From: an uncultured Chloroflexia bacterium | GTDB taxonomy: Bacteria > Chloroflexota > Limnocylindria > Limnocylindrales > CSP1-4 | Direction of reading: 5' to 3' | Assembly: GCA_963828165.1 (NCBI GenBank) | Contig: CAWHDR010000001.1 | Coordinates: 2,839,511 to 2,903,510, forward strand | Length of the DNA stretch: 64,000 nucleotides | Shown here: one piece after another, positions 35,704 to 52,395 of the stretch | How positions within the stretch are numbered: the first letter of the stretch is position 1 | Layout of the letters: every line of letters starts with the position of its first letter | Translations under genes and position numbers: made by a program | Notes under the pieces: model-generated | What the model saw: only the letters and a program-made list of their open reading frames with translations | The model's database searches: none | Told to the model about the DNA's origin: nothing

Positions 35704-36720
35704 TCAGAGGTGCGGTGCGACCCCCTCGGCGAGTTGCTCCATGACCTCGACCTGCGCGTCGTACTCGAGCAGCGGCAGATGGCTGCGCGCTACGAACTCG
35801 ACCGGCACGGGCACCTGGCGCCGGATCCCGAGTAGCGTGTCGACGAGCTCGTCGGGCGTGCCGGCGTACGCGGTCCGGCGCGAGAGGAGCCTTTCGTCAT
35901 CGCCATCGAACGGGGGAGGGGACGTGGCCGGGAGCGGTCGGGTCGCCGACGCCTCCATGTCCGAGTACTTCCAGTTCAGCCCCCAGACGGCGTCGCGGTA
36001 GCGGGCGAGCGCATCGGCCCGGGACGTGCCGGGCAGCAGGATCGAGTAGTGGATGAACCGGAAGGTGGACGGGTCGCGTCCGGCCTCCTCGAGCTCGTCG
36101 AGCACCCACCCGACTTGTTCGCGGAACTTGTCCGCCGGGGCGTTCGAAAAGATGCCGTCCGCGAGTCGGGCGGCCCGGCGGATGGCCGGCTCGGCGCCGC
36201 CGCCGACGAGGACCGGGATCCGGGTCGACGGTGTCGGGCGCACCGCGAGGGTAGGTAGCTGGTACACCGATCCCTCGTGGGTGAACGGCTCGCCGCTCCA
36301 TGCCTGCGGCAGGATCCGGAGGATCTCTTCCATCGCCACGCCGCGACGCCGCATGTCGGCTCCGAGTCCGGCGTACTCGACTTCCGACCAGCCGAGCCCG
36401 AGCCCGAGTGCGAGTCGACCGTGGCTCAGCAGCTGGACGGTCGCCGCATCTTCCGCGAGGCGCAGCGGGTGATGCATCGGCGCGAGGATGACGCCGGTGC
36501 CGATCTCGATCCGTGAGGTCGCCTGGGCGAGGGCCGCGCTGACGACGAGCAGCGAAGGCATGTAGCCGTCGTCGACGAAGTGGTGCTCCGTCGTCCAGAC
36601 CGAGCTGAAGCCGAGCCGTTCGGCCTCGACCGCCAAGCGGACCGTGTCGTCATACGCACGCGTCCAGTCGGTCTCGCCGGGTCGGAGCTGGGCGCTGAGG
36701 AGTCCGAATCCGAGGGTCAT
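35704..36720 (-). CDS. LLM-class flavin-dependent oxidoreductase
   Basis: AERLGFSSVWTTEHHF, HPLRLAED and GRLALGLGLGW. Confidence 0.9.
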   Translation of the reverse strand: MTLGFGLLSAQLRPGETDWTRAYDDTVRLAVEAERLGFSSVWTTEHHFVDDGYMPSLLVVSAALAQATSRIEIGTGVILAPMHHPLRLAEDAATVQLLSHGRLALGLGLGWSEVEYAGLGADMRRRGVAMEEILRILPQAWSGEPFTHEGSVYQLPTLAVRPTPSTRIPVLVGGGAEPAIRRAARLADGIFSNAPADKFREQVGWVLDELEEAGRDPSTFRFIHYSILLPGTSRADALARYRDAVWGLNWKYSDMEASATRPLPATSPPPFDGDDERLLSRRTAYAGTPDELVDTLLGIRRQVPVPVEFVARSHLPLLEYDAQVEVMEQLAEGVAPHL

Positions 36721-36851
36721 GCCGGAGAGGCTACTGCCCTGGAGCCCGAGGCGCAGGTCGGCCCGGTAAAATCAACCGGTCCCAGCGCCCGCCGAGGCAC
36801 ATCGCCACGTCATCGAGCGGCTTGCGCAAGCGTCGGAGCGGAGGATCGATC

Positions 36852-37223
36852 ATGGATTGGAAGCTCGAGCTCGTTTCGGTGCCAGTGTCGGACGTCGACC
36901 GGGCGATCGCGTTCTACACCGACAAGGTCGGCTTCCATCTCGACCAGGATCACAAGGTCAGCGATCAGCTCCGCTTCGTTCAGCTGACGCCCGTGGGGTC
37001 GGCCTGCTCGATCGCGATCGGGACGGGGATGACGGACAAGCCGCCGGGCTCAGTCGGTGGGCTCCAACTGGTCGTCAAGGACGCCGCCGCCGCACGAGCG
37101 GAGCTGCTCGAGCGTGGCGTCGAGGTGAGCGACCTCCAGGACATGCCGTGGGGCCGATTCGTGTTCTTCAGCGATCCGGACGGCAATGGCTGGGCGGTCC
37201 AGGAGCTCCCGGCTCGGCCTTGA
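36852..37223 (+). CDS. VOC/glyoxalase family protein
   Basis: VPVSDVDRAIAFY...FSDPDGNGWAVQE. Confidence 0.9.
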   Translation: MDWKLELVSVPVSDVDRAIAFYTDKVGFHLDQDHKVSDQLRFVQLTPVGSACSIAIGTGMTDKPPGSVGGLQLVVKDAAAARAELLERGVEVSDLQDMPWGRFVFFSDPDGNGWAVQELPARP

Positions 37224-38374: not shown

Positions 38375-38539
38375 TCAGGTCGAACGCGCCTGGCGTCCGC
38401 GCAGATCCGCAATGGATCCACCTGCCGCCGAGCGCCAAAGACTGAGGCATGACGGCGCCGAACGCGCCTCACGTAGACTCGGGTTCTCGGCCGCCGGGTC
38501 GCAATCGGGGAGTCGAATGGTGGACGCGCGGTCGACCGG

Positions 38540-38983
38540 ATGAACCCATCCATCGAATGCCCACGCTGCGGCGCCTCGACCGTCGAACGGACGAATTGTG
38601 ATTCCGGAGAACGCTTCCTCGGATGCAGTCGGTTTCCGGCGTGCCGTGGAACACGACCGCTGGTCGACGGCGCTAAAGCGAGCGCGCCGACACATCCCAC
38701 CCTTCCCACTCGTCCGGCGCGCCCAACCCGCCCAACCCGCTACAAGCTGAGCGCGGGCGGCCGGGCTCGCAATCTCCCAGATGTCGTCGAGCTACTGGTC
38801 GCCCGAGCGATCGGTAGAAACCTGACGCCGATCCAAGGCTGCATCGTCCAAGTCCTCGCTGTCGTGGTCTTCGCAGGCCTCGTGTACGCGTTCTTCGTTT
38901 CCGGCCTGTTCATGCGGGTCGTCGAGCCATTCGCTCAGTGGTACACAGACCAGGTGTTCCCCACGCCCACAACAGCGCCCTGA
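38540..38983 (+). CDS. Topoisomerase-type C4 zinc-ribbon protein with C-terminal TM helix
   Basis: CPRCG...RFLGCSRFPACRGT followed by a Pro-rich linker and a hydrophobic helix. Confidence 0.75.
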   Translation: MNPSIECPRCGASTVERTNCDSGERFLGCSRFPACRGTRPLVDGAKASAPTHPTLPTRPARPTRPTRYKLSAGGRARNLPDVVELLVARAIGRNLTPIQGCIVQVLAVVVFAGLVYAFFVSGLFMRVVEPFAQWYTDQVFPTPTTAP

Positions 38984-39022
38984 TCGGAACGCGCCGGATC
39001 GAGGAGTAAGGAGGTTACGCCC

Positions 39023-39406
39023 GTGGGATCAGTCGAGGAAGCAATCCGGGCGAGATTCAGGACGCCCACGACGCTTCATACCCTGGGGCAAAGAAAGCCT
39101 TTCGTCCTTCAGCGCATCGACCACAATGGGATCGTTCTCCTGCTCGGGAAACAGCGGAACTACACGCCGTTGGGCTGGGACTGTCTCGAGGGCATCGTCC
39201 CGTTCCTGCGTCGTTACTCCGGATGGGTACCCGCCGGCGGGACGTACGTGGTCGACGGCGAGCTCGGCACGCTCGATGAATACCTGAAGGACTGCATCTC
39301 ACGGCAGACCTCGCGTTGGGTCGCTGTGGTCCTGCAGGAAGCTGGCGTCGTCGGCGTGGATAAGGGTCCGCCCCTGCGAGTCCGGCTCACCGAACAGTTC
39401 AGGTAA
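39023..39406 (+). CDS. Hypothetical protein
   Basis: Strong AAGGAGG RBS and a globular-looking 127-aa ORF. Confidence 0.75.
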   Translation: MGSVEEAIRARFRTPTTLHTLGQRKPFVLQRIDHNGIVLLLGKQRNYTPLGWDCLEGIVPFLRRYSGWVPAGGTYVVDGELGTLDEYLKDCISRQTSRWVAVVLQEAGVVGVDKGPPLRVRLTEQFR

Positions 39407-39472
39407 CCGCTGCTCGACCGGAATCGGGCCTCTGACAGCCTAGGTGGCACACGCGATCGTCAGGATCGCGAC

Positions 39473-39874
39473 ATGAACGGTTTCGGTACCGCGCGACACC
39501 GTCAATTGCCCGTCGGGCTGCTCTCAGCCGGCTGGGCCGATGGCAATCGAGGCGAGAACCTCGTGGTCGAGGTCCTGGCCGCCGCTGGGGTCGCCCCTCG
39601 CTTCAACGTGGCCGGTAGCGTCCTCGACTGCCATCAGCAGTTCGCCGTCGGGCCGTACACGCTCGATTTCGCCTGGCCGAAGCTCAGGATCGGGCTCGAG
39701 GCGGACGGCGGGATCCACCAGAAGACCCGCTGCTACACGCGCGATCGCCGCCGCGACGCCTGGCTGCGGGAGCACGGCTGGCTGATGTTCCGCGTCGACA
39801 TCGAGAACCGCGCCCTGCTCCCGAGCCAGATCGGGCGGGTCCTCGACGTCGTCCGTGCGATGGCGCGCGCATGA
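39473..39874 (+). CDS. DUF559 / Vsr-like endonuclease domain protein
   Basis: QFAVGPYTLDFAW...LEADGGIH...DRRRDAWLREHGWLMFR. Confidence 0.85.
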   Translation: MNGFGTARHRQLPVGLLSAGWADGNRGENLVVEVLAAAGVAPRFNVAGSVLDCHQQFAVGPYTLDFAWPKLRIGLEADGGIHQKTRCYTRDRRRDAWLREHGWLMFRVDIENRALLPSQIGRVLDVVRAMARA

Positions 39875-39954
39875 GCGCCTCGAGGATGGCGACGGGCGCT
39901 GACTAGACTTTCGCTCGACCGAACCGGTTGGGGAACGAAAAAGAGGGAGCGTCG

Positions 39955-40482
39955 GTGACTGCAGGCACGCCGGACCGCGTCTATCGCGCGATCAGTCGAG
40001 TGAGTCATGACAACCGCCGCTACTGGCCGACCCTCGACGTCCCCGTCGCACCACAGCGCTGGAACCGAGAGGATCAGCCCACCATCTACGCGTCGCGCGA
40101 GCCGCAAGTCGCGGCAGCCGAGAAGCTTGGGCAACTGTCGAGATCACCGACGCTCCGCTCGGCGCGTGCATTCTGGAGCATCGCGCCGGCCACGGACGAG
40201 GTGTTCATCCTATCCTTCGACCCCAGCGTCTTTCGCGCCAACCTCGCCGATCTCACGGGTCTCCCGGACATCGGCGACTTCCTGACGCCGGACTACAAGG
40301 CCAGTCAGGAGCGCGCCGCCACCCTGCTCGCAAATGGGATGACGGCATTGCGCGCGCCGTCGGCGGTGTTCTGGCCAGACCTGCACCTCAACGAGGCGTA
40401 CTTCGTCACACTGCCTGGCCAGCCCCAACGGGAGCAGTTCCCGCAGGTGCACGAGTTCGGCAAGTTCAAGGGTGAGCCTTGA
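39955..40482 (+). CDS. RES domain protein (putative NAD-targeting toxin)
   Basis: VYR, QRWN...IYASREPQVAAAE, DYKASQ and LRAPSA, the R-E-S family pattern. Confidence 0.75.
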   Translation: MTAGTPDRVYRAISRVSHDNRRYWPTLDVPVAPQRWNREDQPTIYASREPQVAAAEKLGQLSRSPTLRSARAFWSIAPATDEVFILSFDPSVFRANLADLTGLPDIGDFLTPDYKASQERAATLLANGMTALRAPSAVFWPDLHLNEAYFVTLPGQPQREQFPQVHEFGKFKGEP

Positions 40483-40526
40483 CAGTGGGACCTAACTGGG
40501 ATATGGTCGGGACTCGAATGGGAGTC
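40479..40526 (+). promoter_or_regulatory. Sigma70-type promoter with phased GGGA repeats
   Basis: TTGACA (40479)-N17-TATGGT (40502). GGGA occurs at 40487, 40498, 40509 and 40520. Confidence 0.7.
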
Positions 40527-40531
40527 ATCGC

Positions 40532-40933
40532 ATGACCGCCGTCCTCGAATCGGTCAAAGCAACCCAGCAGGCGACCGACCAGAGTTCACTGCTCGCTATC
40601 GCCGCCTTCTTCGGGGTTCCTCCCACCGGCGAAGTGATGCAGCAACTCACCGGGAAGGGCAGCTCCGTGCTCGATCGGGTGAAGAACGGAGCCAAGCTCG
40701 GCTCGGCCGATGACCGCGCACACCTCGAGGTATTGGCGGCATTCGTCCGGGAGTTGCACGGGTACCTCACGCACGCGATGGGTTCACGCTCGCCCGACGC
40801 GCACGGCATGGAACGCTGGCTCGCTGCGGGCCAAGTCGAAGTCGGAGCCCGGACATACCGGCCGATCGAGGCGCTCGCCGATCGAGAACTCGCCATTGGC
40901 GCCCTGAACACGCTCCGCGCCACGCTGGACTGA
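40532..40933 (+). CDS. Putative Xre/MbcA/ParS-like antitoxin
   Basis: HTH-like N-half and C-terminal MERWL...GARTYRPIEAL resembling the DUF2384 W-L...P-I/L-E-L pattern. Adjacent to the RES gene. Confidence 0.55.
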   Translation: MTAVLESVKATQQATDQSSLLAIAAFFGVPPTGEVMQQLTGKGSSVLDRVKNGAKLGSADDRAHLEVLAAFVRELHGYLTHAMGSRSPDAHGMERWLAAGQVEVGARTYRPIEALADRELAIGALNTLRATLD

Positions 40934-41003
40934 CGCCAAACGCTCGTCGCATACACTCCGGCTGAGTCAACGCGAACCTGCGTCGATCGGGGGAGGGGAG
41001 AGG

Positions 41004-42943
41004 TTGCACCTCTACCAGGGCACGACCCAGCAGTTCATCGCCGACGCTACGCAGGCGCGCCTGGCGAACATGCTCTCCGACCGGTGGTTCGACGAGTTCC
41101 GCTACCGGCCGTCGCCGTCCGAGGTCACGTCCTGGCGAAACTCGCTCGAGCGCGATGGCGCACGTCCTCCAGGTCGCCGACCTGACCGACCAGGGGATCC
41201 TCGTCGAGCTCAAGATGCCGCTCACCTCGAAGCGGCTCGACGTCCTCATCACCGGCTCGAACCCCGACACGAAGCGCGACTCCGCCGTCATCGTCGAGCT
41301 CAAGCAGTGGACCGAGGTCGGCCGCTCGAACATCACCGACTGCGTCACCGTCGACTACGGCGGCAGGCCGCGCGACACCTCCACCCGTCGCGCCAGGTCG
41401 CGCAGTACCAGCGCTACCTGCTGGACACGCATCCGGCGTTCTCCGACGACCGCGCGATCGCGCTCGACGCCTGCGCCTACCTCCACTACGCCCAGCACGA
41501 CCCGACGTCGCCGCTCTACCACGCCGACTTCGCGACGCTGCTCGGCACGAACCCGTCGTTCGCCGGCGACCAGTCGGACGCGCTTCGCGACCTTCCTCGA
41601 CCAGCGCGTCGCCGGCCCGGACGAGGGCGAGATCCTCGAGCGCGTCGCCGCGACCGCCTTCAAGCCGCACAAGCGCCTGCTCGACCACGTCGCCCGCGTC
41701 ATCCGCAACGAGCCGACCTTCGTGCTCCTCGACGAGCAGCTCGTCGCCTACAACGCGATCCTCGACGCGGTCGGCCACGCCGGCACAGAACCAGCAGAAC
41801 GTCGTCTTCCTCATCGAGGGCGGCCCGGGCACCGGCAAGTCGGTCATCGCCCTCAACCTCGTCGCGGAGCTCGCCGAGCGCGGCCTCAGCACGCTCCACC
41901 TGACCGGCTCGAAGGCGTTCACCGAGAACCTGCGCAAGATCGTCGGCGGCCGGGCCGGCGCGCTGTTCAAGTACTTCCGCGACACCGCGACCGTCACCGA
42001 CAAGCTCGACGTCGCCATCCTCGACGAGGCCCACCGCATCCGGACGATCAGCACGAGCCGCTTCACGCCCGCGAAGGCGCGCACGGGCAAGTCCCAGATC
42101 GACGACATCCTCGACTCGAGCCGGGTCACCGTCTTCTTCATCGATGACCTGCAGGTCGTGCGCCCGGGCGAGGTCGGCAGCACGGACCTGATCCGCGAGG
42201 CGGCCGCCAAGCGCTGCGATCGAGGTCCGCGACTTCAAGCTCGAGGCGCAGTTCCGCTCGAACGGCTCCGATTCGTTCATCCAGTGGGTCGACAACACGC
42301 TCGAGCTCGACCGGACGCCGCAGGTCCTGTGGTCGATGGACGACGAGTTCGACTTCCAGATCGTCGGCTCGATCGGCCAGCTCGAGCAGAAGATCCGCGC
42401 CAAGGCCGGCGAGCCGGGACGACCGCCCGACTCGTCGCCGGCTTCTGCTGGCCCTGGTCCGACCCCGACGACGACGGCCAGCTCGTGCCGGACGTCAGGG
42501 TAGGGGAGTGGTCGATGCCCTGGAACGCCAGGGACGGCGTCGGCCGGCTCGGGCCCGGCATCCCGAAGTCGGACTTCTGGGCGAGCGCGAAGGAGGGGAT
42601 CGACCAGGTCGGCTGCGTCTACACCGCGCAGGGCTTCGAGTTCGACTACGTCGGCGTGATCGTCGGCCCCGACCTCGTCTACCGGCCGATGGACGGGGGA
42701 TGGGTCGGCCAGCGCGACCAGTCGCACGACCGCGTCGTCCGCCGCGGCGTCACCGAGGCCGAGTTCACCCGCTACGTCAAGAGCACCTACCGCGTCCTGC
42801 TGACCCGCGGCCTCCGCGGCTGCTACGTCTACTTCATGGACGCCCCGACGCGCGACTTCTTCCTGAGCCGGACCGAAAGCTCGCGCGGGGCTCTTCGTCA
42901 CACCGCGGAGACCAAAGCAACCTATGCACGCGATGGACAGTGA
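41004..42943 (+). CDS. DUF2075 (Schlafen group 3-type DNA/RNA helicase) with N-terminal nuclease-like domain; several frameshifts
   Basis: SEVTSWRNSL, KRLDVLI..IVELKQW, IEGGPGTGKS, ILDEAHR, ARLVAGFCWPW, GCVYTAQGFEFDYVG and YRVLLTRG. Confidence 0.88.
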
Positions 42944-44017
42944 TGCGTATCTCCGAAAGTCTCTCGAGCGACTTGATCGGAGCCGCCGGCCTGTTACTGC
43001 TTGGTCTGCTCGCCGCCGCATGGTTCCTCATCGGCCTTCCGGAGATGCCTTCCCTTGCAAGCCCAATCAACCTTGAAACCGGCCGCCCCTTGGAGGTCAC
43101 GCTCTCAGCGCAGTCCGCGCCACCTCCAGCCCAAGTCACCGTCCGAATCACTGTCGTGGACGCGAACACGAGTCAGGGAGACATTGCAGCGCTCGTGCAG
43201 GTTCGAATTGCGGACAAGCACCTACTCGCCCTTCGTGACGTAGCGACTCCTCCGATCTGCGCGGGGGCCAATCGACGGCGACGGGTACGGTTGTTGTCGT
43301 CAGGCGAAACGGACGGCTTGGACTCACCGACGATTGTTACGGGCAACTTGCGTTCGATCTGACCCTCCTACCCACCGAGGGTGGCGCCACGCACATATTG
43401 ATCGGCCTTGGGTCGGTCGTGGATCGGCCAACTGGCTTCACAGGAGCCAGCTTTGCCACAAACGTGGCGTCGCCCGCGTTCTCCACCCCGCGCGCCTTTC
43501 CTGATGACAAACAGTGGTACGCAGCGTTTCCATCGCTCTCCTACGATCGCCTCGTTGAGAGGACTGCGACAGGGTTTGCGTTCTACGCAGACGTGCGCTT
43601 TGAGATCGAGCGAGCCGGGCACTCGGAAGCCAGGATGTCAGCGTAGACACCGCGGCCGCCGATGGGAGTGCGCCAGTCTCATTCGTCGTTTCACGGGACG
43701 CCGTCACGCGATTGTGGGTGTATGGAGCAGCACTGCTTCCTACCGCCCTCTTCCTAGCGGTTAGTTTGAGTAGCAAGTCCAAAAACCGATCGGGCACTCA
43801 ACCGGACATCGACGTGCTGAACATCGGAATTTCGCTGCTGGCAATTCTGTCCTTATCGACGTCCTGGTCCCCGCCGAAGCGGAAACGCCAAATCGGGTCC
43901 AACGATTGTTGGTCGGCCAGATCGTGGCATTTGTTGTGTGGCCGAGCTGGCGGGATTGGCTCCGAAGATCGCATGTTGCGATGCGTTCGGCCCCTGACCC
44001 AGCATCACCCCGCGTAG
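42943..44017 (+). CDS. Putative membrane protein (N-terminal TM, soluble domain, C-terminal TMs); frameshifted, end approximate
   Basis: TGATG coupling to DUF2075. Hydrophobic segments lie in ORFs 42508-43362 and 43712-44017. Confidence 0.5.
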
Positions 44018-44063
44018 GGCAAGAACCACCGGCCGATCCGGGAACGATTGATCGGAGACCCAA

Positions 44064-46060
44064 ATGAAGTTGCTCCGGGCCAGGGTTCAGAACTATCGAA
44101 GCATCCTCGACAGCGGGTGGTTCGACGTTGAGGAACAGAAGACCATCTTGGTCGGGACGAACGAGTCGGGCAAGACCGCCCTCTTGCGCGCGCTCCAAAC
44201 ACTCAACCCTCCGGCAGGCGAAGGGGAACTGGAGGCCTTTCAAGACTTCCCGCGGTCAGACTATGGACGGATTTCGGGCGGGGCGACATCGCCCCCGAGG
44301 ATGTTGTCATCGTAGAAGGCGACTTCGCCGTCGATGAGGACCTCCGGGCCCGCCTCGCGGCTATCGACGCAACGATTCGGCATCGTTCAGACGGTCCGGA
44401 TTGCGCGCTACCTGGCTAACAATCGGCGAGTGTCGATGGACGGAGTAACGTCCAGTGTCCGCTGGCGCACGATGGCGCGTAAGTTTGGATCGGCTCCGCT
44501 CCAACGCCGAGAAGGCCGGGGGCCAGGAGGCGACACTCAGGGCATTTGACGTCTTATCGCGTGATTTGGACTCAGATGACTTCGTTCTTGGGGAGGTCGC
44601 CGAGAAGCTGTCTGAGTGGCTGCGCGAGTCCGCCCAGGTTTGAAGGCCTCAGATCAGGCCGCTGTTTTGACATCCCTGCTCGAGATTCGAACTGAGTTGC
44701 CCGGCCGACACGCTAGGGCTCGCGAAGCTGTGCTCGAAGCAGCTCCCCTCGCTCTTTGTCTATTACTCAAGCTTCACAACCGTGCGGCCCCGAATAACCT
44801 GTCCCTTCTAGCTACTCGAATACAGGCGAACGATGTGGACGCCGACCTGGACGCCGGCAATGTCGCTCTGTTCAAACTTCTTCGGCTCGACGCTGCCGAA
44901 GTCTCCGCCCAGGGCAAGGCATCGGTCAAATCGGTGACGTCGCAGGAAGACGCCGAGCAGGTACAGAACCAACTGGCCAAACGACAACATACCCTCGCTG
45001 AGGCTGGCGAAGGACCTCACTTCGGCCGTCCGAAAGGTATGCGGGGCGAGAAGCACAAACTGGAATTCCGCGCGGATGGCGATTGGGTGCGCGTAGTCGT
45101 CGTTGAGAATGATGTCGACATCGAACTGGATCAGCGCAGTGCCGGATTTCTTGTCTGGTTGGTCAGCTTTTATGTCGTCTTCAAGGCGGAAACGGCTGAC
45201 AACTTGGCAAATGCAATTCTTCCTTCTCGACGAACCAGGACTGAGTCTCTGATGCCCCGAAGCAACGACAATTTCGCGAAACTGTGTCGTCAATCGCGAC
45301 GGGCAATCAAACGCTATATACGACCCATTCACCTTTCATGGTGGGTCCAGATGAATTGCACCTGGTTCGCGTGGTCGAACTACGCTCCAGGAAGGGCACT
45401 CGGGTCCATCAAGGGGTCACCAGCGCTGATCCGGCCGCGCTATTTCCCCTCCAAGCGGCACTCGGGTACAGCATGGCGCAATCGCTGTTTGCGCAGCAGT
45501 CCGAACCTCGTTTGTGAAGGGCTCACCGATTTCTGGTACATCGAAGGCATGAGCAATCTGCTGGGCGAACGCAAGCGGCCTTCTCTTCGTGAAGACATAG
45601 CGATCGTGCCGGCTGGAGGAGCCAGCAAAGTGGCCTACTTTGCCGTTCTCCTTCGCGCCCAAAAGCTCCAGGTTGCAGCTCTGTTGGATTCCGACACCGA
45701 AGGCGAGCATGCGGCGGGCCTGAGCGAGTTCGTGTACGCCCTTGGTCGGGCGCAAATCCTTCGGACAGGCGACTTCACGGCGAAAGTCGGGACGCTCTAC
45801 CACGGAAGACCTCCGTATGACTCTTGTGCACGTTGCCAAGGCAGAACTTGGATGGGATGTACACAAAGCCGCGCTCTCGCAACCAGAGCGCCCAGTCCTC
45901 AAGATTTTCCAGACATCGCATTGGAAAGAACTTCTCCAAGTATCAGTTGGTGAAGGCCTTCGTCAGGTGGACTGGTGCTCATTCGCACAGGGATCTCGAC
46001 CCCGCTGAGGTATCGAATTGGACCCTTCTCTTCGGTCGAATTAACGAAATCCTGAAGTAG
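44064..46060 (+). CDS. OLD-family ATP-dependent nuclease (ABC ATPase + TOPRIM); many frameshifts
   Basis: VQNYRSI, VGTNESGKT (Walker A), RSAGF, LLDEPGLS (Walker B, shifted frame), YTTHSP, LVCEGLTD and LLDSDTEG. Confidence 0.88.
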
Positions 46061-46131
46061 AGGTTTGGAGACGGTCGGTGCTGTTGCGATGCGGCACGAG
46101 TACGGATCCGGACCTTCCTGGGAGACCCTAG

Positions 46132-47738
46132 GTGCGCCTAAGCCTTGAACTGGTCTCTGCATTGGACCTTGAATTCGCATCACACCAGGCGGCCGAGAGA
46201 GGCAGTGACTTCTTCCCGCTGACACTTGCGTTTCGCGCCGCGAACAATCCGGACTTCCTCCGTTGGCTTCGGTCGTCTTGGTCGAAGGGGTTTGTCGCCC
46301 GAGTCAACCCGAATTCGTTGTCGTGCCAAAGCTCGGCGCCGGTACCAGGCTGGCAGTGGACATGCCCGTCGAAGAACGACTGCTATTCGATGCGCTGTGC
46401 GCGCACTTATCGAACATTGCTCTTGGGCAGCTGGTGAATCGGTCAGTTGACTTCGAGGATCGCCCTGCCGCCGAAGACGTCCTCGCGCGAGGCGAAAACT
46501 CTCATGTCCTAATGACCGACATCGTCGCGTTCTACGACTACCTTGACCGGTCAAGACTTGCCATTGAGCTTGAGGACATCACTGGGGAAGGAGAGGCAAC
46601 TTCGGCCCTTTGTGAACTTCTTGACCATGCGATGGGAGATCGGGAAGGAATTCCCCGAAGGGTTGATGCCAACTGCTACGTTCTTGGGCGACGTATACCT
46701 GTCGATTGCAGATCGGGTGTTGGGCCGCGGGGGTACGCCAGTGGTCCGCTGGATCGACGACTATCGTTTCGCCGCGAGCAGTCTTAGGGACGCATTTCAC
46801 CTAAAGACCGAGCTGGAGCTCCAACTTAGGGATCTGGGACTTGTGATCAACTCGGCGAAGACTTGGATGCCAACGCGCGATGAGTACCGAGCGCTCATTG
46901 CGAGCCGAACGGGAGCGGAAGTCGACCGAGACCGCTCTCAAGAGCCGAATCGAAACGCGTATTCGAGATGAGTACGAAACCACTGACGCCGAGGACGATC
47001 GACCGAAATCGGTTCGAGCCAAGGGCGTCCGAATAGACCCCATCCTGGAGGGACGCAGCTCACAGAGGCTGCTGCGGACGACGCTGAATGGGGCGCGACA
47101 CCGCAGGGCTATGCGACGAGTCGTCGAATTGAACTCAGCCTGCGCGAACTCGGCCGGACGGGATCCTCGGCGCCGTTGGGAAGGCTAGGTGTGCTTCTGT
47201 TTCGGCACCCTCACCTGACGAAACAGGTTTCGTACTATCTGCGCACCAGGATCAACGGCGGTTGGGAAGCCGACACGGTTCGACTTGTGTCGGAGGCCTT
47301 GGCGGCCGATGCCTTTCCCTATCCCTGGCAGCGGGGTTGGCTCCTCCACGCACTAATCCCCGCCAAGAAGAAGCCATTGCCCCCAGCGGCTATTGATGTT
47401 CTCTGGCAGCGTTCCATGCTGACGATCTGAGTTTTGTTTCGCTGGTCGCGCGGCGATTGTCCTCGCAACCCAAGGACTTCTACCAGCTCGGTCCAGAGCT
47501 GGCGCACGCCTTCATCTGCGACGTGGCTAAATCCAACGGTGCGGATCTTGTGGGGGCTGCAAGCCTAATGCCCGAGACGACGGCGCGAGATCAAAACATA
47601 GAGTCGGTGCGTCGCGACCGCCTTCTTCTGTCGAGCAATTGCCGAGGCCAGCGCCGACACGAGCGCCATCTACTTGTGATGACATCGGCGGTAAAGAGTG
47701 AGTTCTGCACCTGGCTGGTCGCCGAACTTGAGCATTGA
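46132..47738 (+). CDS. Reverse transcriptase, UG/Abi-like, with helical C-terminal extension; frameshifted, end approximate
   Basis: Joined frames give VPKLGAGTR, TDIVAFYDYLD, GIPEG, FLGDVYL, RWIDD (46747-46761), LGLVINSAKT and later PYPWQRGWLL. Confidence 0.85.
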
Positions 47739-48305
47739 AGCCGAACGGGCAATTCGAAGACTTGAACCGCCTTCGAATAGTCATCGCCCGATCACAGGCC
47801 ACGATCCGTCTGATCCCGAGCCCAACGCGTCGAGCTCAACTCTCCGACTCGGCGGAACTGGGCGTCGTCCGGGCCTTCTCTGTGCTCGAATCTTATCTGA
47901 GCGAACGAGCAGACACCATCATTCGTGAGGACCTTCCGGTTCCTGCGTCCCCCACGTCGCTCACAAAATTCGCTCACCTCAACCTCCTAGGGGCTTTTCG
48001 CGGCAACTTCGAACGAGGGATGGTTGGCTTCTGGAAAAGGCCTCCAATGTCGATCTGCAGAAGCTTCCCGACGGGTGGAGTAGCGTCGACGAGTTTCGCG
48101 AGCTCCGAAATCTCCTTACTCACGGTTTGGGTTACATCCGGCCAGGCGGTGCTCAGCTCCCCAGAGTCTGGCCAAGCGCCTTCGAAAGGTCACGGCAGAT
48201 CCAGGAACCTTCACCGGAGGGGTCCCGGTGGAGAATGAGGATTTCGATGAAATGGCCCGACTGGTCCGATCGACCGTACTGTGGGTCGATCAGCAAGTCA
48301 CGTAA
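47735..48305 (+). CDS. HEPN-domain putative RNase; two frameshifts
   Basis: Helical N-terminus (VVRAFSVLESYL) and R-x4-H motif FRELRNLLTHG (RNLLTH at 48106-48123). Confidence 0.75.
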
Positions 48306-48331
48306 CGGACATAACTCACCTTCTCCCGGGA
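48304..48331 (-). other. Degenerate dif-like Xer recombination site
   Basis: Minus strand reads TCCCGGGAGAA-GGTGAG-TTATGTCCGTT. It shares 17 bp with the site at 49481. Confidence 0.75.
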
Positions 48332-48879
48332 CCCCTCGCCACCAGCTCATTTGCGGCCCCCAGACGCCCTAGGACGGCCGTGGCGCCGCTTTCCGCTCTT
48401 CGATGGCCGTCCGCCTGACTTCGGCGCTCCGGGCGGCGGGGGAGGGCTAGTTTCAGCCTCAGTCGGCGGCTGGCGATCGACGTCGGCGGCCGAGTCACCC
48501 GGCGCGACGTTCCGAGGACCGAGGGACTGCGGACCTGCGGTCCTTCCGTCCCCCGGTCAATCTCAGCGTGCGGGTCCTGAAATCGCGGGCCGTCAAGGGC
48601 GGCTCTGCCGAGCCGTCGCCTGCGGCGATCGCGGACCCTTGACCGCCCTCGTCCAGATCGATACGCCTGAGGCGGGCGCGAATGCAACCGGCGATGCTCT
48701 GGACACCGGAGCTCCGTCCGACCTGGTCGACGCGTCACGGACCAGCCGGCCGCGATCGCGGCCGCGATCGCCTCAGCCCGGGTCACGCCCTGCCGCGTCA
48801 GCGATGTCCAGCACCACCGGCCGTCGCGATCGGCGTAGTCGCAACCGAGGTTCCAGACCTGCAATCTCACCAGCGGCAT
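48316..48879 (-). CDS. Phage-like small Zn-binding protein (first ~65 aa; remainder doubtful)
   Basis: CDY...WC...AIAAGW...LRCPEH, preceded by TTGCAG-N17-TAGGAT-N6-ATG. Confidence 0.6.
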   Translation of the reverse strand: MPLVRLQVWNLGCDYADRDGRWCWTSLTRQGVTRAEAIAAAIAAGWSVTRRPGRTELRCPEHRRLHSRPPQAYRSGRGRSRVRDRRRRRLGRAALDGPRFQDPHAEIDRGTEGPQVRSPSVLGTSRRVTRPPTSIASRRLRLKLALPRRPERRSQADGHRRAESGATAVLGRLGAANELVARGPGRR

Positions 48880-48914
48880 AGCGACATCCTAAACACTCCC
48901 ACTGTTCACTGCAA
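48880..48914 (-). promoter_or_regulatory. Leaderless sigma70-type promoter
   Basis: -35 TTGCAG (48914-48909), 17-bp spacer, -10 TAGGAT (48891-48886), 6 nt to ATG. Confidence 0.65.
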
Positions 48915-49131
48915 GCCCTATTTGTCACGCATATGCAGTCCTGCACCTGTTGAGAGTGTCTATAGGTACGTTTGGTGTGTTGAGACATTGCCTCTGTGTC
49001 AAGGCCGCCAGACGCGCCGGAGCCCGAGTGCATCAACCAACACTCGGGCCCCGGGTCCTCACAGCGCGAGTGATCCACCGGTGTCGCCAACCACCGCACT
49101 CCGCGAGGCCGCTACATTTACGCCCAGATCG

Positions 49132-49395
49132 TCAGCTGTAGACGCGGGGCGGCGTGCCGTTCAGGGTGTCCCGATGCTCGTCCGTGAGCGCGAGTTGAGT
49201 TCGGATTGGCCAGAGCGCCAGGCGAAGATGCATGAAGCGCCCACAGACCGGGACCTGCCAGGGCGGACCCTCGCCGGCCCAGCCGTGCTCGTACATCATC
49301 GGCGACGGGAACTCAACCGACTCAACCGGCGACTCCCCGCAGACCACACAAATCCGCTCGCCGAACCGCCACCGGATCCACGGGTCCACGGGCAA
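49132..49395 (-). CDS. Small Cys/His-rich hypothetical protein
   Basis: CVVC...CGRFMH potential Zn ligands, inside the dif-flanked segment. Confidence 0.4.
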   Translation of the reverse strand: MPVDPWIRWRFGERICVVCGESPVESVEFPSPMMYEHGWAGEGPPWQVPVCGRFMHLRLALWPIRTQLALTDEHRDTLNGTPPRVYS

Positions 49396-49480
49396 TCGCG
49401 CCTCTCGAGAGACCGAACCCTCCGCGTCAGCGTTGCGGTCCGGCTGGGCCGCATTCTGGCCCTCAATGGGGTCAAAATCA

Positions 49481-49508
49481 ACCGGACATAACTCACCTTA
49501 TCGGAAGT
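49481..49508 (-). other. dif: dif site (XerC/XerD chromosome dimer resolution site)
   Basis: Minus strand reads ACTTCCGATAA-GGTGAG-TTATGTCCGGT, an 11-6-11 layout with the ATAA/TTAT dyad and TTATGT XerD-arm start. It is intergenic. Confidence 0.85.
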
Positions 49509-49544: not shown

Positions 49545-50309
49545 CTACCGCGCCGTCCAGCCGCCGTCGACCGTCAGGACGGTTCCTGTGACCATCCCGG
49601 CTGCCGGCGAGGCCAGATACAGCACCGCGGCGGCGACATCGGCCGTCGACGCGACGCGGCCGGCCGGGATCCGCTCCAGGACGGACGTGAGGAATACCGG
49701 ATCGTCCAGGCGCTCCGCCGTACCGGGCGTGTAGACCCATGTCGGGGCGACGCAGTTGACCGTGACGCCCTGTGGCGTCCACTCCAGCGCCAACACGCGC
49801 GTCAGGCCGATCACCGCCGCCTTGCTCGCCGAATAGGCCGCGTGGCGCGGGATGCCGACCAGACCGGCCTGAGACGCCATGTTGATGATCCGTCCGGAAC
49901 CCTGCGGCAGCATCACCCGGGCGGCGGACTGTGAGGCGAAGAAGAGCCCGCGGACGTTGACCGCGAACAGCTCGTCCCACTCGGCCTCGGTCGCGTCGAT
50001 CGCGTCGTGGTTCGTCCCGAGCCCGGCGTTGTTGACGAGGATGTCGAGTCGCCCGAACGCGTCGACGACCTGCGCGACCGCGCGTTCGATCGACACACGG
50101 TCGGTCAGATCGAGCTCGACAGGGGAGGCTTCGCCACCCGCGGCGCGGATGGCGCTGACGACCGAATTGACGCGCTCCCCTGCCCTCCCGGCAACCCCGA
50201 CCCGAGCGCCGGCCTCGGCGAACGCCATGGCCAGATCGGCGCCGATGCCCCCGGTCGCACCCGTCACGAGCACGACCTGACCCTCGACCGAGAACGAAAC
50301 GGCGGTCAC
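49545..50309 (-). CDS. SDR family oxidoreductase
   Basis: TGATGGIG, NNAG, YSASK and VDGGW. TAGGCT-N6-GTG start. Confidence 0.93.
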   Translation of the reverse strand: MTAVSFSVEGQVVLVTGATGGIGADLAMAFAEAGARVGVAGRAGERVNSVVSAIRAAGGEASPVELDLTDRVSIERAVAQVVDAFGRLDILVNNAGLGTNHDAIDATEAEWDELFAVNVRGLFFASQSAARVMLPQGSGRIINMASQAGLVGIPRHAAYSASKAAVIGLTRVLALEWTPQGVTVNCVAPTWVYTPGTAERLDDPVFLTSVLERIPAGRVASTADVAAAVLYLASPAAGMVTGTVLTVDGGWTAR

Positions 50310-51573: not shown

Positions 51574-52395
51574 TCATGTCCCGCAGGCGAACGCGAAGTA
51601 GATCGGGATGTCGAGTCCGATATGGACCGCCATCGGGATCAGCAGCGATCGGGTCCGCACCGCGATGACCCCGGCAACGAGCCCGCCCACGCCCAGGGCG
51701 AGCATCAGGGGCAGCTGCAATCCGATGACATCCGCACCCGAGTGCGCCACGCCGAACACGATGGCCTGGCCCACGACCGCCGGCCCCAGCCCCATGACCT
51801 TGGCCGACCAGCCCAGCAGCGCGCCGCGATAGATCATCTCCTCCATGACCCCGTTCGCGGCCGCGAACACGAGCGCCGGCACGAGTGCTGCCGCCACGAG
51901 CTCGTAGCCCACGTCGCCAAAGAACGGCCGGGCGAGATACGGGCCGGCGAGCAGCGCGATCGGACCCGACACGAGGAAGCCGACGACAGCCCAGCGCACC
52001 CAGCGGCGGGCCGGCGAGCGCAGGGACAGCGACGCCGGGGTCGCCCGCAGGATGAGTACGAGCCCCGCGAGGCCGCCCAGGACGACCAGCGCCTCGAGCG
52101 CGCGCCACGTCGCCACGGGCGAGGTGGGGTTCGCGCAGTCGGACCCGTCGAGGGCGACCGTCGGAGCCGGCAGACCGCCCCAGAACAGGCTGAGGGCAAC
52201 GGGCACCGCGCCAGCCCAGGCCCAGCGAACTGGCGCGTCGCGCCAGATCGCGATCGCCGCGCCGGCGGCCAGCCCGACAAGGACGACAGCGCGCAGCCCC
52301 GGCAGCGCCGCGGCGAGCACCAGCAACCCGAGTGGCACGGCAGAGCGCGCGAAGTCAACGGGGTCGCTGGGGAGGTAGCGGCGCGCGGCTCCCAC
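51574..52395 (-). CDS. CPBP family intramembrane metalloprotease
   Basis: EEMIYRG, FGVAH and HIGLD motifs in a multi-pass membrane protein. Confidence 0.85.
   Translation of the reverse strand: MGAARRYLPSDPVDFARSAVPLGLLVLAAALPGLRAVVLVGLAAGAAIAIWRDAPVRWAWAGAVPVALSLFWGGLPAPTVALDGSDCANPTSPVATWRALEALVVLGGLAGLVLILRATPASLSLRSPARRWVRWAVVGFLVSGPIALLAGPYLARPFFGDVGYELVAAALVPALVFAAANGVMEEMIYRGALLGWSAKVMGLGPAVVGQAIVFGVAHSGADVIGLQLPLMLALGVGGLVAGVIAVRTRSLLIPMAVHIGLDIPIYFAFACGT

Follow-up and report, generated by a model that had tools for sequence, protein, structure and literature searches.

A hypervariable defense hotspot between a DUF2075 helicase gene and the chromosomal dif site in uncultured soil bacteria

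We analyzed a 64-kb stretch of DNA (hereafter, the window), which forms the end of a 2.9-Mb contig in the genome of an uncultured soil bacterium, and compared the surroundings of its chromosomal dif site, the dimer-resolution site with a XerD and a XerC arm, with those of related genomes. As judged from the gene content of 20 dif loci, we show that the interval between a DUF2075 helicase gene and dif constitutes a hypervariable defense hotspot fixed to dif, and that the region 42.9-49.5 kb of the window is one occupant of it. The hotspot DNA differs in every species compared, is low in guanine plus cytosine (GC), reads towards dif and holds mostly known or candidate anti-phage genes. The anatomy of these loci suggests that the dif recombinases of the cell help to capture immune genes; we give roughly even chances to a hotspot that is fixed to dif with new DNA entering through XerC/XerD recombination at this site. 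The genome of the window, G000, is 3.311 Mb long, with six contigs, 70% GC and an estimated completeness of 87.7%; the codes G###, g# and L### stand for the genomes, genera and dif loci of its relatives.

A genome-wide scan for the dif core identified a single full dif in G000, located on the plus strand at 49481-49508 and composed of the XerD arm ACCGGACATAA, the central region CTCACC and the XerC arm TTATCGGAAGT. The site is unique in the genome and syntenic in relatives. It lies 1.651 Mb from dnaA (49.9% of the genome length) and thus, being about half a genome away, sits where a terminus site is expected. The GC skew proved weak, asymmetric and uninformative as a terminus locator, and the distance from dnaA was taken instead. 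The exact 15-mer GACATAACTCACCTT, comprising the XerD arm, the centre and the adjacent TT, has two copies in G000 and is present in 74 of the 131 genomes of the genus, including five in which it occurs twice; the reversed control gave no match. PF00589 recombinases are represented by three matches in the genome, two of which score as Xer-type, and XerC-like and XerD-like recombinases are present (NF001399, 279.7 and 321.7 bits against a cut-off of 279). An initial annotation of the window, made from the sequence alone, had reported neither an integrase nor a tRNA, in agreement with our PF00589 and tRNA searches, which found none within the 64 kb.

The left border of the hotspot is formed by the gene for a DUF2075 (Schlafen-group-3-type) helicase (41004-42943, plus strand; Pfam SLFN-g3/DUF2075 3e-37 at 42158-42943), the C-terminus of which resembles the PADLOC family PDC-S41 (8.8e-8). 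DUF2075 was found in 34 of the 131 genus genomes. The 20 loci examined all have it on the XerD side, pointing at dif across a spacer of 61 bp (G501) to 6556 bp (G000). The G000 gene is 95.4% identical in nucleotide sequence to that of G115 and 93.5% to that of G086, and its substitutions are distributed over the three codon positions as 48/29/133, the dominance of third positions indicating purifying selection. The DUF2075-dif linkage extends to at least four other genera of the family, g9 (G118, G134 and G342), g29, g27 and g7. Our tallies for other genera, as well as those for the UG22 reverse transcriptases described below, take in the unpublished genomes G136, G180 and G512, on which no specific claim rests. 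On this comparative evidence, the DUF2075 helicase is a vertically inherited neighbor of dif, and the low-GC cargo lies between the two.

The position of dif itself is conserved. All eight relatives compared first have dif between the same anchors, a luciferase-like gene on the left and an Rce1-like region on the right, at distances that vary on both sides. Between G000 and G086, homology is lost near 42884 and regained within the XerD arm, at 49485. The flanks are 89-95% identical at the nucleotide level among G000, G115 and G086, and the whole interval between them is replaced.

The cargo of the intervals, or spacers, was characterized by a Pfam scan of the 150 longest of 181 open reading frames (ORFs) of at least 70 aa from 17 genomes, with G016 and G005 scanned separately, and by a PADLOC analysis of 49 chosen ORFs. 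The initial annotation had proposed to compare gene content next to dif across relatives and had named invariance as the outcome that would speak against a hotspot; all 20 spacers are different; their GC content is 0.58-0.70, and the sole cross-match among them is weak (68% over 716 nt). The spacer of G501 is empty. Among the 19 occupied spacers, 13, including that of G000, possess genes with matches to defense or candidate-defense families, and in all 13 the matched genes read towards dif. These are a complete type II CBASS, the anti-phage signaling system that works through cyclic oligonucleotides, in G415 (cyclase 2.4e-87, E1-E2 3.8e-104, JAB and a SAVED effector), Mrr in G470 (1.9e-84), a Hachiman-type helicase in G496 (HamB-like, 4.5e-46), the reverse transcriptase RT_UG32 in G438 (1.6e-71), TGT/QueC/OGG with SLATT and two TIR proteins in G475, a CAP12-type TIR protein in G490 (PDC-S35), a Ppl-like ATPase in G464, PDC-S06 in G491, PADLOC candidate (PDC) families in G086, G115 and G016, HEPN in G437, and OLD with a UG22 reverse transcriptase and its putative HEPN-like partner in G000. 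In addition, G481 carries an Avs2-type STAND NTPase (PADLOC 9.9e-193), in three ORFs, about 100 nt from a dif copy (L060:5454-9575, contig C11), its second dif being on another contig.

The assignment of the intervals to defense is tempered by the six occupied spacers in which the Pfam and PADLOC scans gave no defense match (G441, G478, G486, G197, G456 and G005), and by the fact that several of the defense calls are weak matches to PDC families. The wider dif neighborhoods of the first eight relatives contain plain accessory genes as well.

The sole similarity between spacers concerns the DUF2075-proximal ends of those of G464 (L058:2154-3278) and G475 (L055:7513-8304), where both ORFs match PDC-S48 and beyond which the dif-proximal parts differ; its location fits older cargo being farther from dif. 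Another arrangement recurs in two genera: in G438 (L046:2330-3838) and G118 (L039:9679-13130), the DUF2075 helicase gene is followed at once by a 502-aa RT_UG32, the stop codon of which touches dif. The two RT_UG32 proteins are 41% identical, and the G118 gene overlaps DUF2075 by one base. The DUF2075 helicase and RT_UG32 may represent a two-gene system.

In the window, the hotspot occupant coincides with a change in base composition: the GC content is 0.68-0.70 at 41-43 kb, 0.57-0.61 at 43-48.5 kb and again 0.68-0.70 after 49 kb, in line with the drop near 42.9 kb described in the initial annotation. The low-GC cassette starts with a 139-aa hydrophobic open frame (42943-43362, plus strand) that overlaps the DUF2075 stop codon. 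This frame has no family match in Pfam or PADLOC and no support beyond being open. The following ~700 bp of low-GC DNA (43363-44063) contain short ORF fragments only, without a match, and may represent a disrupted gene or a segment of the cassette that is regulatory or non-coding.

The next gene (44064-45953, plus strand) encodes an OLD-family nuclease with an N-terminal ABC-type ATPase domain (AAA_15 2.2e-8, 44064-44315) and a C-terminal TOPRIM domain (OLD-like_TOPRIM 1.4e-5, within 44616-45953). Its N-terminus matches the AriA, GajA and Old profiles at about 1e-9, positions 316-361 of the Old profile are found in another frame at 45284-45517, and the frame is broken by an in-frame stop and by frame changes. 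The gene lies 3.5 kb from dif. According to a 2026 preprint (10.64898/2026.09.30.755081), the trigger of the P2 OLD system is reportedly the DNA ends that arise when replication terminates.

Downstream of OLD lies a class 1 UG/Abi reverse transcriptase (RT) gene of group UG22 (46263-47738, plus strand), which is split over at least three frame segments. On three ORF pieces at 46263-47430, no other defense-associated RT profile scores as well as RT_UG22 (PADLOC 4.1e-21, 1.3e-18 and 2.4e-8); a genome scan placed profile positions 49-169 at 46275-46655 and 177-393 at 46681-47373, so that 49-393 are spanned. A word-based protein search among 550 candidates and a scan of genome contigs both failed to find relatives of this RT. 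The last gene of the block (47735-48305, plus strand) is a putative HEPN-like partner of the RT, which passes from frame 2 to frame 1 (~48040) and then to frame 0 (~48150) and ends with the stop codon TAA at 48303-48305. Its three-frame translation contains the motif EFRELRNLLTHG (R-x4-H). It has no profile match in Pfam or PADLOC, also at relaxed thresholds, and 33 aa of it align, with 45% identity (E 7e-6), to the gene located behind an intact UG22 RT in G043.

The initial annotation had placed the HEPN stop codon on the XerD arm of a dif-like site. The TAA indeed shares two bases with the start of the 28-mer at 48304-48331 (plus strand); the site, however, is a pseudo-dif rather than dif, matching dif at 21 of 28 positions, with the XerD arm, the central region and the TT intact and the XerC arm degenerate. 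The full dif lies 1.15 kb downstream. Between the two sites lies an insert of 1149 bp (48332-49480), which is unique in the genome (a self match only in blastn). It contains an 87-aa ORF on the minus strand (49132-49395) with a coding-type GC content at third codon positions (GC3 0.84) and no Pfam match, as well as a possible start of a 70-aa ORF, also on the minus strand (48670-48879). The 87-aa ORF has one metagenomic homolog (90 aa, 71% identity); two metagenome scans for relatives gave just false 14-residue matches in DNA with 44% GC.

This arrangement has a counterpart in G011. The tandem copies of the 15-mer are 1177 bp apart in G000 and 822 bp apart in G011, and in both genomes it is the upstream copy whose XerC arm is degenerate; each insert (1.15 and 0.8 kb, respectively) lies between a dif-like site and dif that point the same way. 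The two inserts have no similarity to each other or to other genome sequence. In G000, the right end of the insert is the sole full dif, and the OLD-RT-HEPN cassette ends at the older copy at 48304. Such a pair, in which the upstream site combines a good XerD arm and centre with a foreign XerC arm and the downstream site is an intact dif, is the expected product of the integration of a circle at dif through strand exchange in the centre. From this anatomy we infer that the 48304 site may be the left junction of an Xer-type insertion, and that the pseudo-dif was probably left when a further 1.15-kb element entered at dif.

The mechanism we propose would proceed as follows. XerC and XerD would recombine incoming DNA with dif, a working dif would be rebuilt on the right of the insert, flush with its last gene, and a crippled copy would stay on the left, where it could not be used for excision by FtsK-driven Xer recombination. 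The 48304/49481 pair around the 1.15-kb insert would be the fresh trace of one such event, and the OLD-RT-HEPN block, the stop codon of which touches the XerD arm of the older site, would have entered before that insert. Older left junctions would have been lost later, or relatives would have exchanged whole cassettes through homologous recombination within their conserved flanks. The initial annotation had suggested a terminus hotspot accumulating defense cargo via host XerC/D; the hotspot is borne out by the 13 of 19 occupied spacers, and the part ascribed to XerC/D is an interpretation of site anatomy.

The junctions of cargo and site speak for Xer-mediated entry. The stop codon of the terminal gene, where this gene is supported by a domain match, lies 0-3 nt from the XerD arm or inside it in six of 11 cases (G464, G496, G438, G118, G490 and the pseudo-dif of G000), and 50-104 nt from the arm in the other five. 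The G464 stop is the TAA of the arm itself, and such frames were counted only when they had a domain match. Similar frames in G437, G197, G475, G017 and G000 (48682-49491) were discarded as possibly chance open frames in GC-rich DNA. On the XerC side, 11 convergent ORFs, five of them with a Pfam match, end 16-46 nt from the arm. When genomes are compared, the outer edge of the XerD arm is where similarity begins or breaks off. In many of them the XerC-side flank, too, diverges immediately past the arm, with about 25 bp shared there. In many-contig assemblies, contigs often begin 1-100 nt before the XerD arm (2 nt in G182, 4 in G308, 4 in G419, 12 in G526, 50 in G035, 94 in G265 and 97 in G514), as is expected of assembly graphs where strains diverge; the graphs seem to branch right at the arm.

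The main rival to Xer entry is homologous exchange, in which an ordinary defense hotspot is kept by double crossovers between conserved flanks after DNA uptake, perhaps aided by hyper-recombination at the terminus, and dif is a landmark preserved by selection and not the site of exchange. As the full explanation we find it rather unlikely, and as a contributor that moves whole cassettes it probably acts as well. Flanks of 89-95% identity around a wholly replaced interval in G000, G115 and G086 are what it predicts, and such a clean replacement is expected equally from either process. It also agrees with the sharpness of both borders, at the end of the DUF2075 frame and at the arm, with the absence of a second dif-like site in 19 of the 20 loci, and with the defense hotspots flanked by core genes that have been described in Pseudomonas and E. 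coli (PMC10250203, PMC10121019). However, it leaves unexplained why unrelated terminal genes end at or inside the XerD arm in six of 11 cases and keep 16-46 nt away on the XerC side, and why G000 and G011 have tandem pseudo-dif/dif pairs. On the XerC side many genomes share only ~25 bp, and none of the cassettes recurs among the 20 loci.

Several observations weigh against Xer entry itself. Half-site and degenerate scans of the window revealed no left dif-like junction for the OLD-RT-HEPN block, and no left junction of a large cassette was found in G118 or in the 20 loci, 19 of which have a single dif, with an extra site in G000 only (at most 8/26 mismatches). Xer capture is thus inferred rather than shown, as the large cassettes come without a left junction. 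Searches of the genome, the 20 loci, contigs, plasmids and metagenomes detected neither a circular form, nor attP on a free element, nor a second copy of any cassette; the plasmid search with 43000-49480 gave three trivial matches, each covering at most 2% of the query. In G043, 630 kb separate the intact UG22-HEPN module from dif, and no dif-like site was found beside the module. The extra dif copies of G421, G456 and G481 are on other contigs and possibly reflect just co-binned strains. Finally, the XafT/DUF3653-type activator (PF12375) has no match in the 87.7%-complete G000. The two dif contigs of G456 had been considered as proof of a very recent exchange; this was weakened by their XerC sides, which are 95.7-98.5% identical and possibly derive from two co-binned populations.

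A wider version of the Xer proposal, a family-wide 'Xer integron', is tentative and in our view somewhat more doubtful than not. Here dif would be a platform for immune capture without an integrase, into which host XerC/XerD would insert, between DUF2075 and a PIN/HTH_17 gene pair, cassettes with the last stop codon fused to the XerD arm; the crippled XerC arm would lock them in, and DUF2075 or HTH_17 might be part of the machinery.

The first picture of the locus, taken literally, was that of one co-oriented island of ten genes acquired as a unit against dif. All ten ORFs or ORF chains are indeed on the plus strand, without an integrase or tRNA, and most of the proposed identities were recovered: Zn-ribbon, DUF559, RES, DUF2075 and OLD with Pfam and the RT with PADLOC, leaving HEPN and the antitoxin without a profile match. 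We nevertheless consider acquisition as a single island very improbable. The DUF2075 gene in its middle is vertically inherited and linked to dif in 20 genomes of the genus and in other genera; GC is ~0.64-0.70 up to 42.9 kb and falls beyond this point; and the site abutted by the ten genes is a pseudo-dif, with 1.15 kb of additional inserted DNA before the real dif. The low-GC cassette is confined to ~42.9-48.3 kb, and the genes at 38.5-40.9 kb belong to a separate variable stretch beyond DUF2075.

As assembled, the DUF2075, OLD, RT and HEPN genes annotated at the outset are not open, each being interrupted by repeated frame changes. DUF2075 has about six net frameshifts relative to the intact 640-aa G016 ortholog (six tblastn pieces in three frames), and the same three-frame pattern appears against a DUF2075 protein from a Hymenobacter plasmid. 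Each of the OLD, RT and HEPN genes has at least two frame changes (at least three in the RT and two in the HEPN-like partner). In total, the ~6 kb of cargo contain about 15 frame breaks, with in-frame stops besides. We favor, with reasonable confidence, local consensus errors of a few-contig metagenome assembly in a strain-variable region over real decay as the main source of these breaks. Public contigs of the Illumina type that are 97-99% identical to DUF2075 and come from other samples lack the G000 indels at 41785, 42216 and 42413/4. The public runs (best share of sampled words 0.09) cover little besides the DUF2075 gene, and nothing follows from their missing coverage of the rest. One public contig of 329 nt differs from G000 by five substitutions and two indels, a proportion of indels far above that of usual natural divergence. 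Among the 20 loci, DUF2075 is multi-frame in eight of 14 few-contig assemblies and in none of six many-contig ones, and the Avs2 gene of G481, another few-contig-type bin, is split likewise.

The opposite view, in which the G000 cargo is a dead relic with DUF2075, OLD, RT and HEPN as true pseudogenes that confer no immunity here, we regard as a minority possibility. Defense genes turn over quickly, which accords with it, as does the co-occurrence of in-frame stops with frame changes. Also in its favor, the flanking core sequence is unbroken: the 17 kb checked, at 28.7-38.4 and 49.5-57.1 kb, are tiled by ORFs with a coding-type GC3. Consensus errors, if they are the cause, must thus be confined to this region, and real decay keeps some probability. 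Against a relic stand the indel-free short-read contigs, the restriction of broken DUF2075 genes to few-contig assemblies, the similar fate of Avs2, and the concentration of DUF2075 substitutions at third codon positions.

Elements that integrate at dif without an integrase of their own are known as integrative mobile elements exploiting Xer recombination (IMEXs), and descriptions include islands with dif at one end and a degenerate dif-like site at the other (PMC6744903). The examples compared were CTXphi, VGJphi and TLCphi of Vibrio, the gonococcal genetic island, and the dif-integrated filamentous and tailless Vibrio prophages. The locus described here resembles them in the integrase-free insertion at chromosomal dif, with host XerC/XerD-like genes located outside the window, in a ~1-kb insert framed by dif and a degenerate copy of it, and in its defense cargo, defense loci being carried by dif-integrated Vibrio prophages (PMC11630473). 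It differs from them in having no phage, replication or transfer genes, but bare defense operons of 1-6 kb; in the degenerate arm, which is the XerC and not the XerD arm; in lacking, unlike TLCphi-type elements, XafT/DUF3653; and in showing both junctions only for the ~1-kb inserts of G000 and G011, whereas the large cassettes have one site. The hosts also differ: a soil family treated here as Actinobacteria, as opposed to proteobacteria, chiefly gamma- and beta-, for the IMEXs as these sources present them.

With the hotspots flanked by core genes, such as the core defense hotspots of P. aeruginosa and those of the E. coli pan-genome and of P2/P4, the locus shares a fixed address between conserved flanks where the immune system changes from one strain or species to the next, whereas one of its borders is a 28-bp recombination site to which the cargo is butt-joined. 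As in integrons and the pdif modules of Acinetobacter, promoter-distal co-oriented cassettes abut a tyrosine-recombinase site with their ends, and the platform has a possible toxin-antitoxin pair next to it. Here, in contrast, there is one site per locus (19 of 20) and not per cassette, no dedicated integrase, and the site is the essential chromosomal dif instead of attI/attC or alternating paired plasmid sites. A paper on an Acinetobacter hotspot (PMC11723918) makes no mention of XerC, XerD, a dif site, pdif or the terminus. The UG22 RT with a HEPN-like neighbor is already published, its defense prediction being rated there as inconclusive (Mestre et al. 2022, PMC9226505). The G000 pair agrees with that system in its best match to the UG22 profile and in the small downstream gene with R-x4-H, alignable to the G043 partner, and differs in its broken genes and in the OLD gene directly upstream, an arrangement not shared by G043.

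Our literature searches found no chromosomal defense hotspot that is bounded by dif, family-wide in Actinobacteria, with bare cassettes butt-joined to the XerD arm and a dif-linked DUF2075, nor any Xer-exploiting element of this kind for Actinobacteria, the phylum used for the host. If dif is the entry point, a housekeeping recombinase pair would supply anti-phage systems without the machinery of mobile elements. The DUF2075-to-dif interval is a precisely bounded place to mine new defense genes from uncultured soil bacteria, given that six of 19 occupied intervals have no defense match and many ORFs in the others belong to no known family. In such hotspots, moreover, metagenome assemblies of few contigs can be trusted least.

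On the XerC side, a PIN-domain toxin gene and its HTH_17 (excisionase/MerR-type) partner converge on dif in nine genomes of the genus (L012, L015, L018, L043, L047, L048, L050, L057 and L058). This pair may be a stabilizing toxin-antitoxin module, or HTH_17 may serve as an Xer accessory factor. G000 has SDR (short-chain dehydrogenase), DUF1810 and UDG genes in its place. Single genes have occasionally slipped in beside dif on this side, including SDR (G000, G086 and G115), HEPN (G437) and MazF (G415). The SDR gene of G000 (49545-50309, minus strand; Pfam adh_short_C2 8.2e-65) converges on the XerC arm, and its counterparts of 89-91% nucleotide identity adjoin dif in G086 and are present in G115.

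The right syntenic anchor is a gene for an Rce1-like CAAX protease (51574-52395, minus strand; Pfam 4.8e-15). The left one is a luciferase-like monooxygenase gene (35704-36720, minus strand; Pfam Bac_luciferase 2.7e-64), found on the same side of dif in seven relatives with 86-91% nucleotide identity. Beside it, a glyoxalase-family gene (36822-37223) has two paralogs elsewhere on contig C1 (50-53% amino acid identity), and glyoxalase genes recur in the dif neighborhoods of relatives.

The variable stretch at 38.5-40.9 kb contains five genes, all on the plus strand, which had no counterpart in a first set of relatives' dif loci. A protein with a Top1-type C4 Zn-ribbon and a hydrophobic C-terminus (38540-38983; Pfam Zn_ribbon_Top1 3.6e-8) has no PADLOC match and no tblastn match in these loci. 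The 127-aa ORF at 39023-39406 has no family assignment, with no Pfam match up to E=1 and no PADLOC match; its only lead comes from Atlas, to clusters with 12-16% DUF6855 members (score 0.94). The initial annotation had offered this ORF and the one at 42943 as candidate new defense genes, and nothing was found in favor of either. The next gene (39473-39874) encodes a small endonuclease-fold protein of the DUF559/REase_MTES_1575 type (Pfam DUF559 2.3e-8; MTES_1575 1e-6, below its cut-off). It is followed by a RES-domain toxin gene (39928-40482; Pfam RES 9.9e-13) and a possible Xre/MbcA/ParS-type antitoxin gene (40532-40933), which has an Atlas lead to PF09722 clusters (score 0.88-0.89, 183 shared features) and no Pfam or NCBIfam match. 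The toxin gene comes first here, whereas the antitoxin gene comes first in known RES-Xre pairs. Further downstream, past the right anchor, the segment 52885-53000 matches the end of contig C6 on its minus strand (C6:23990-24105) with 99% identity, possibly as a repeat or an unresolved contig overlap.

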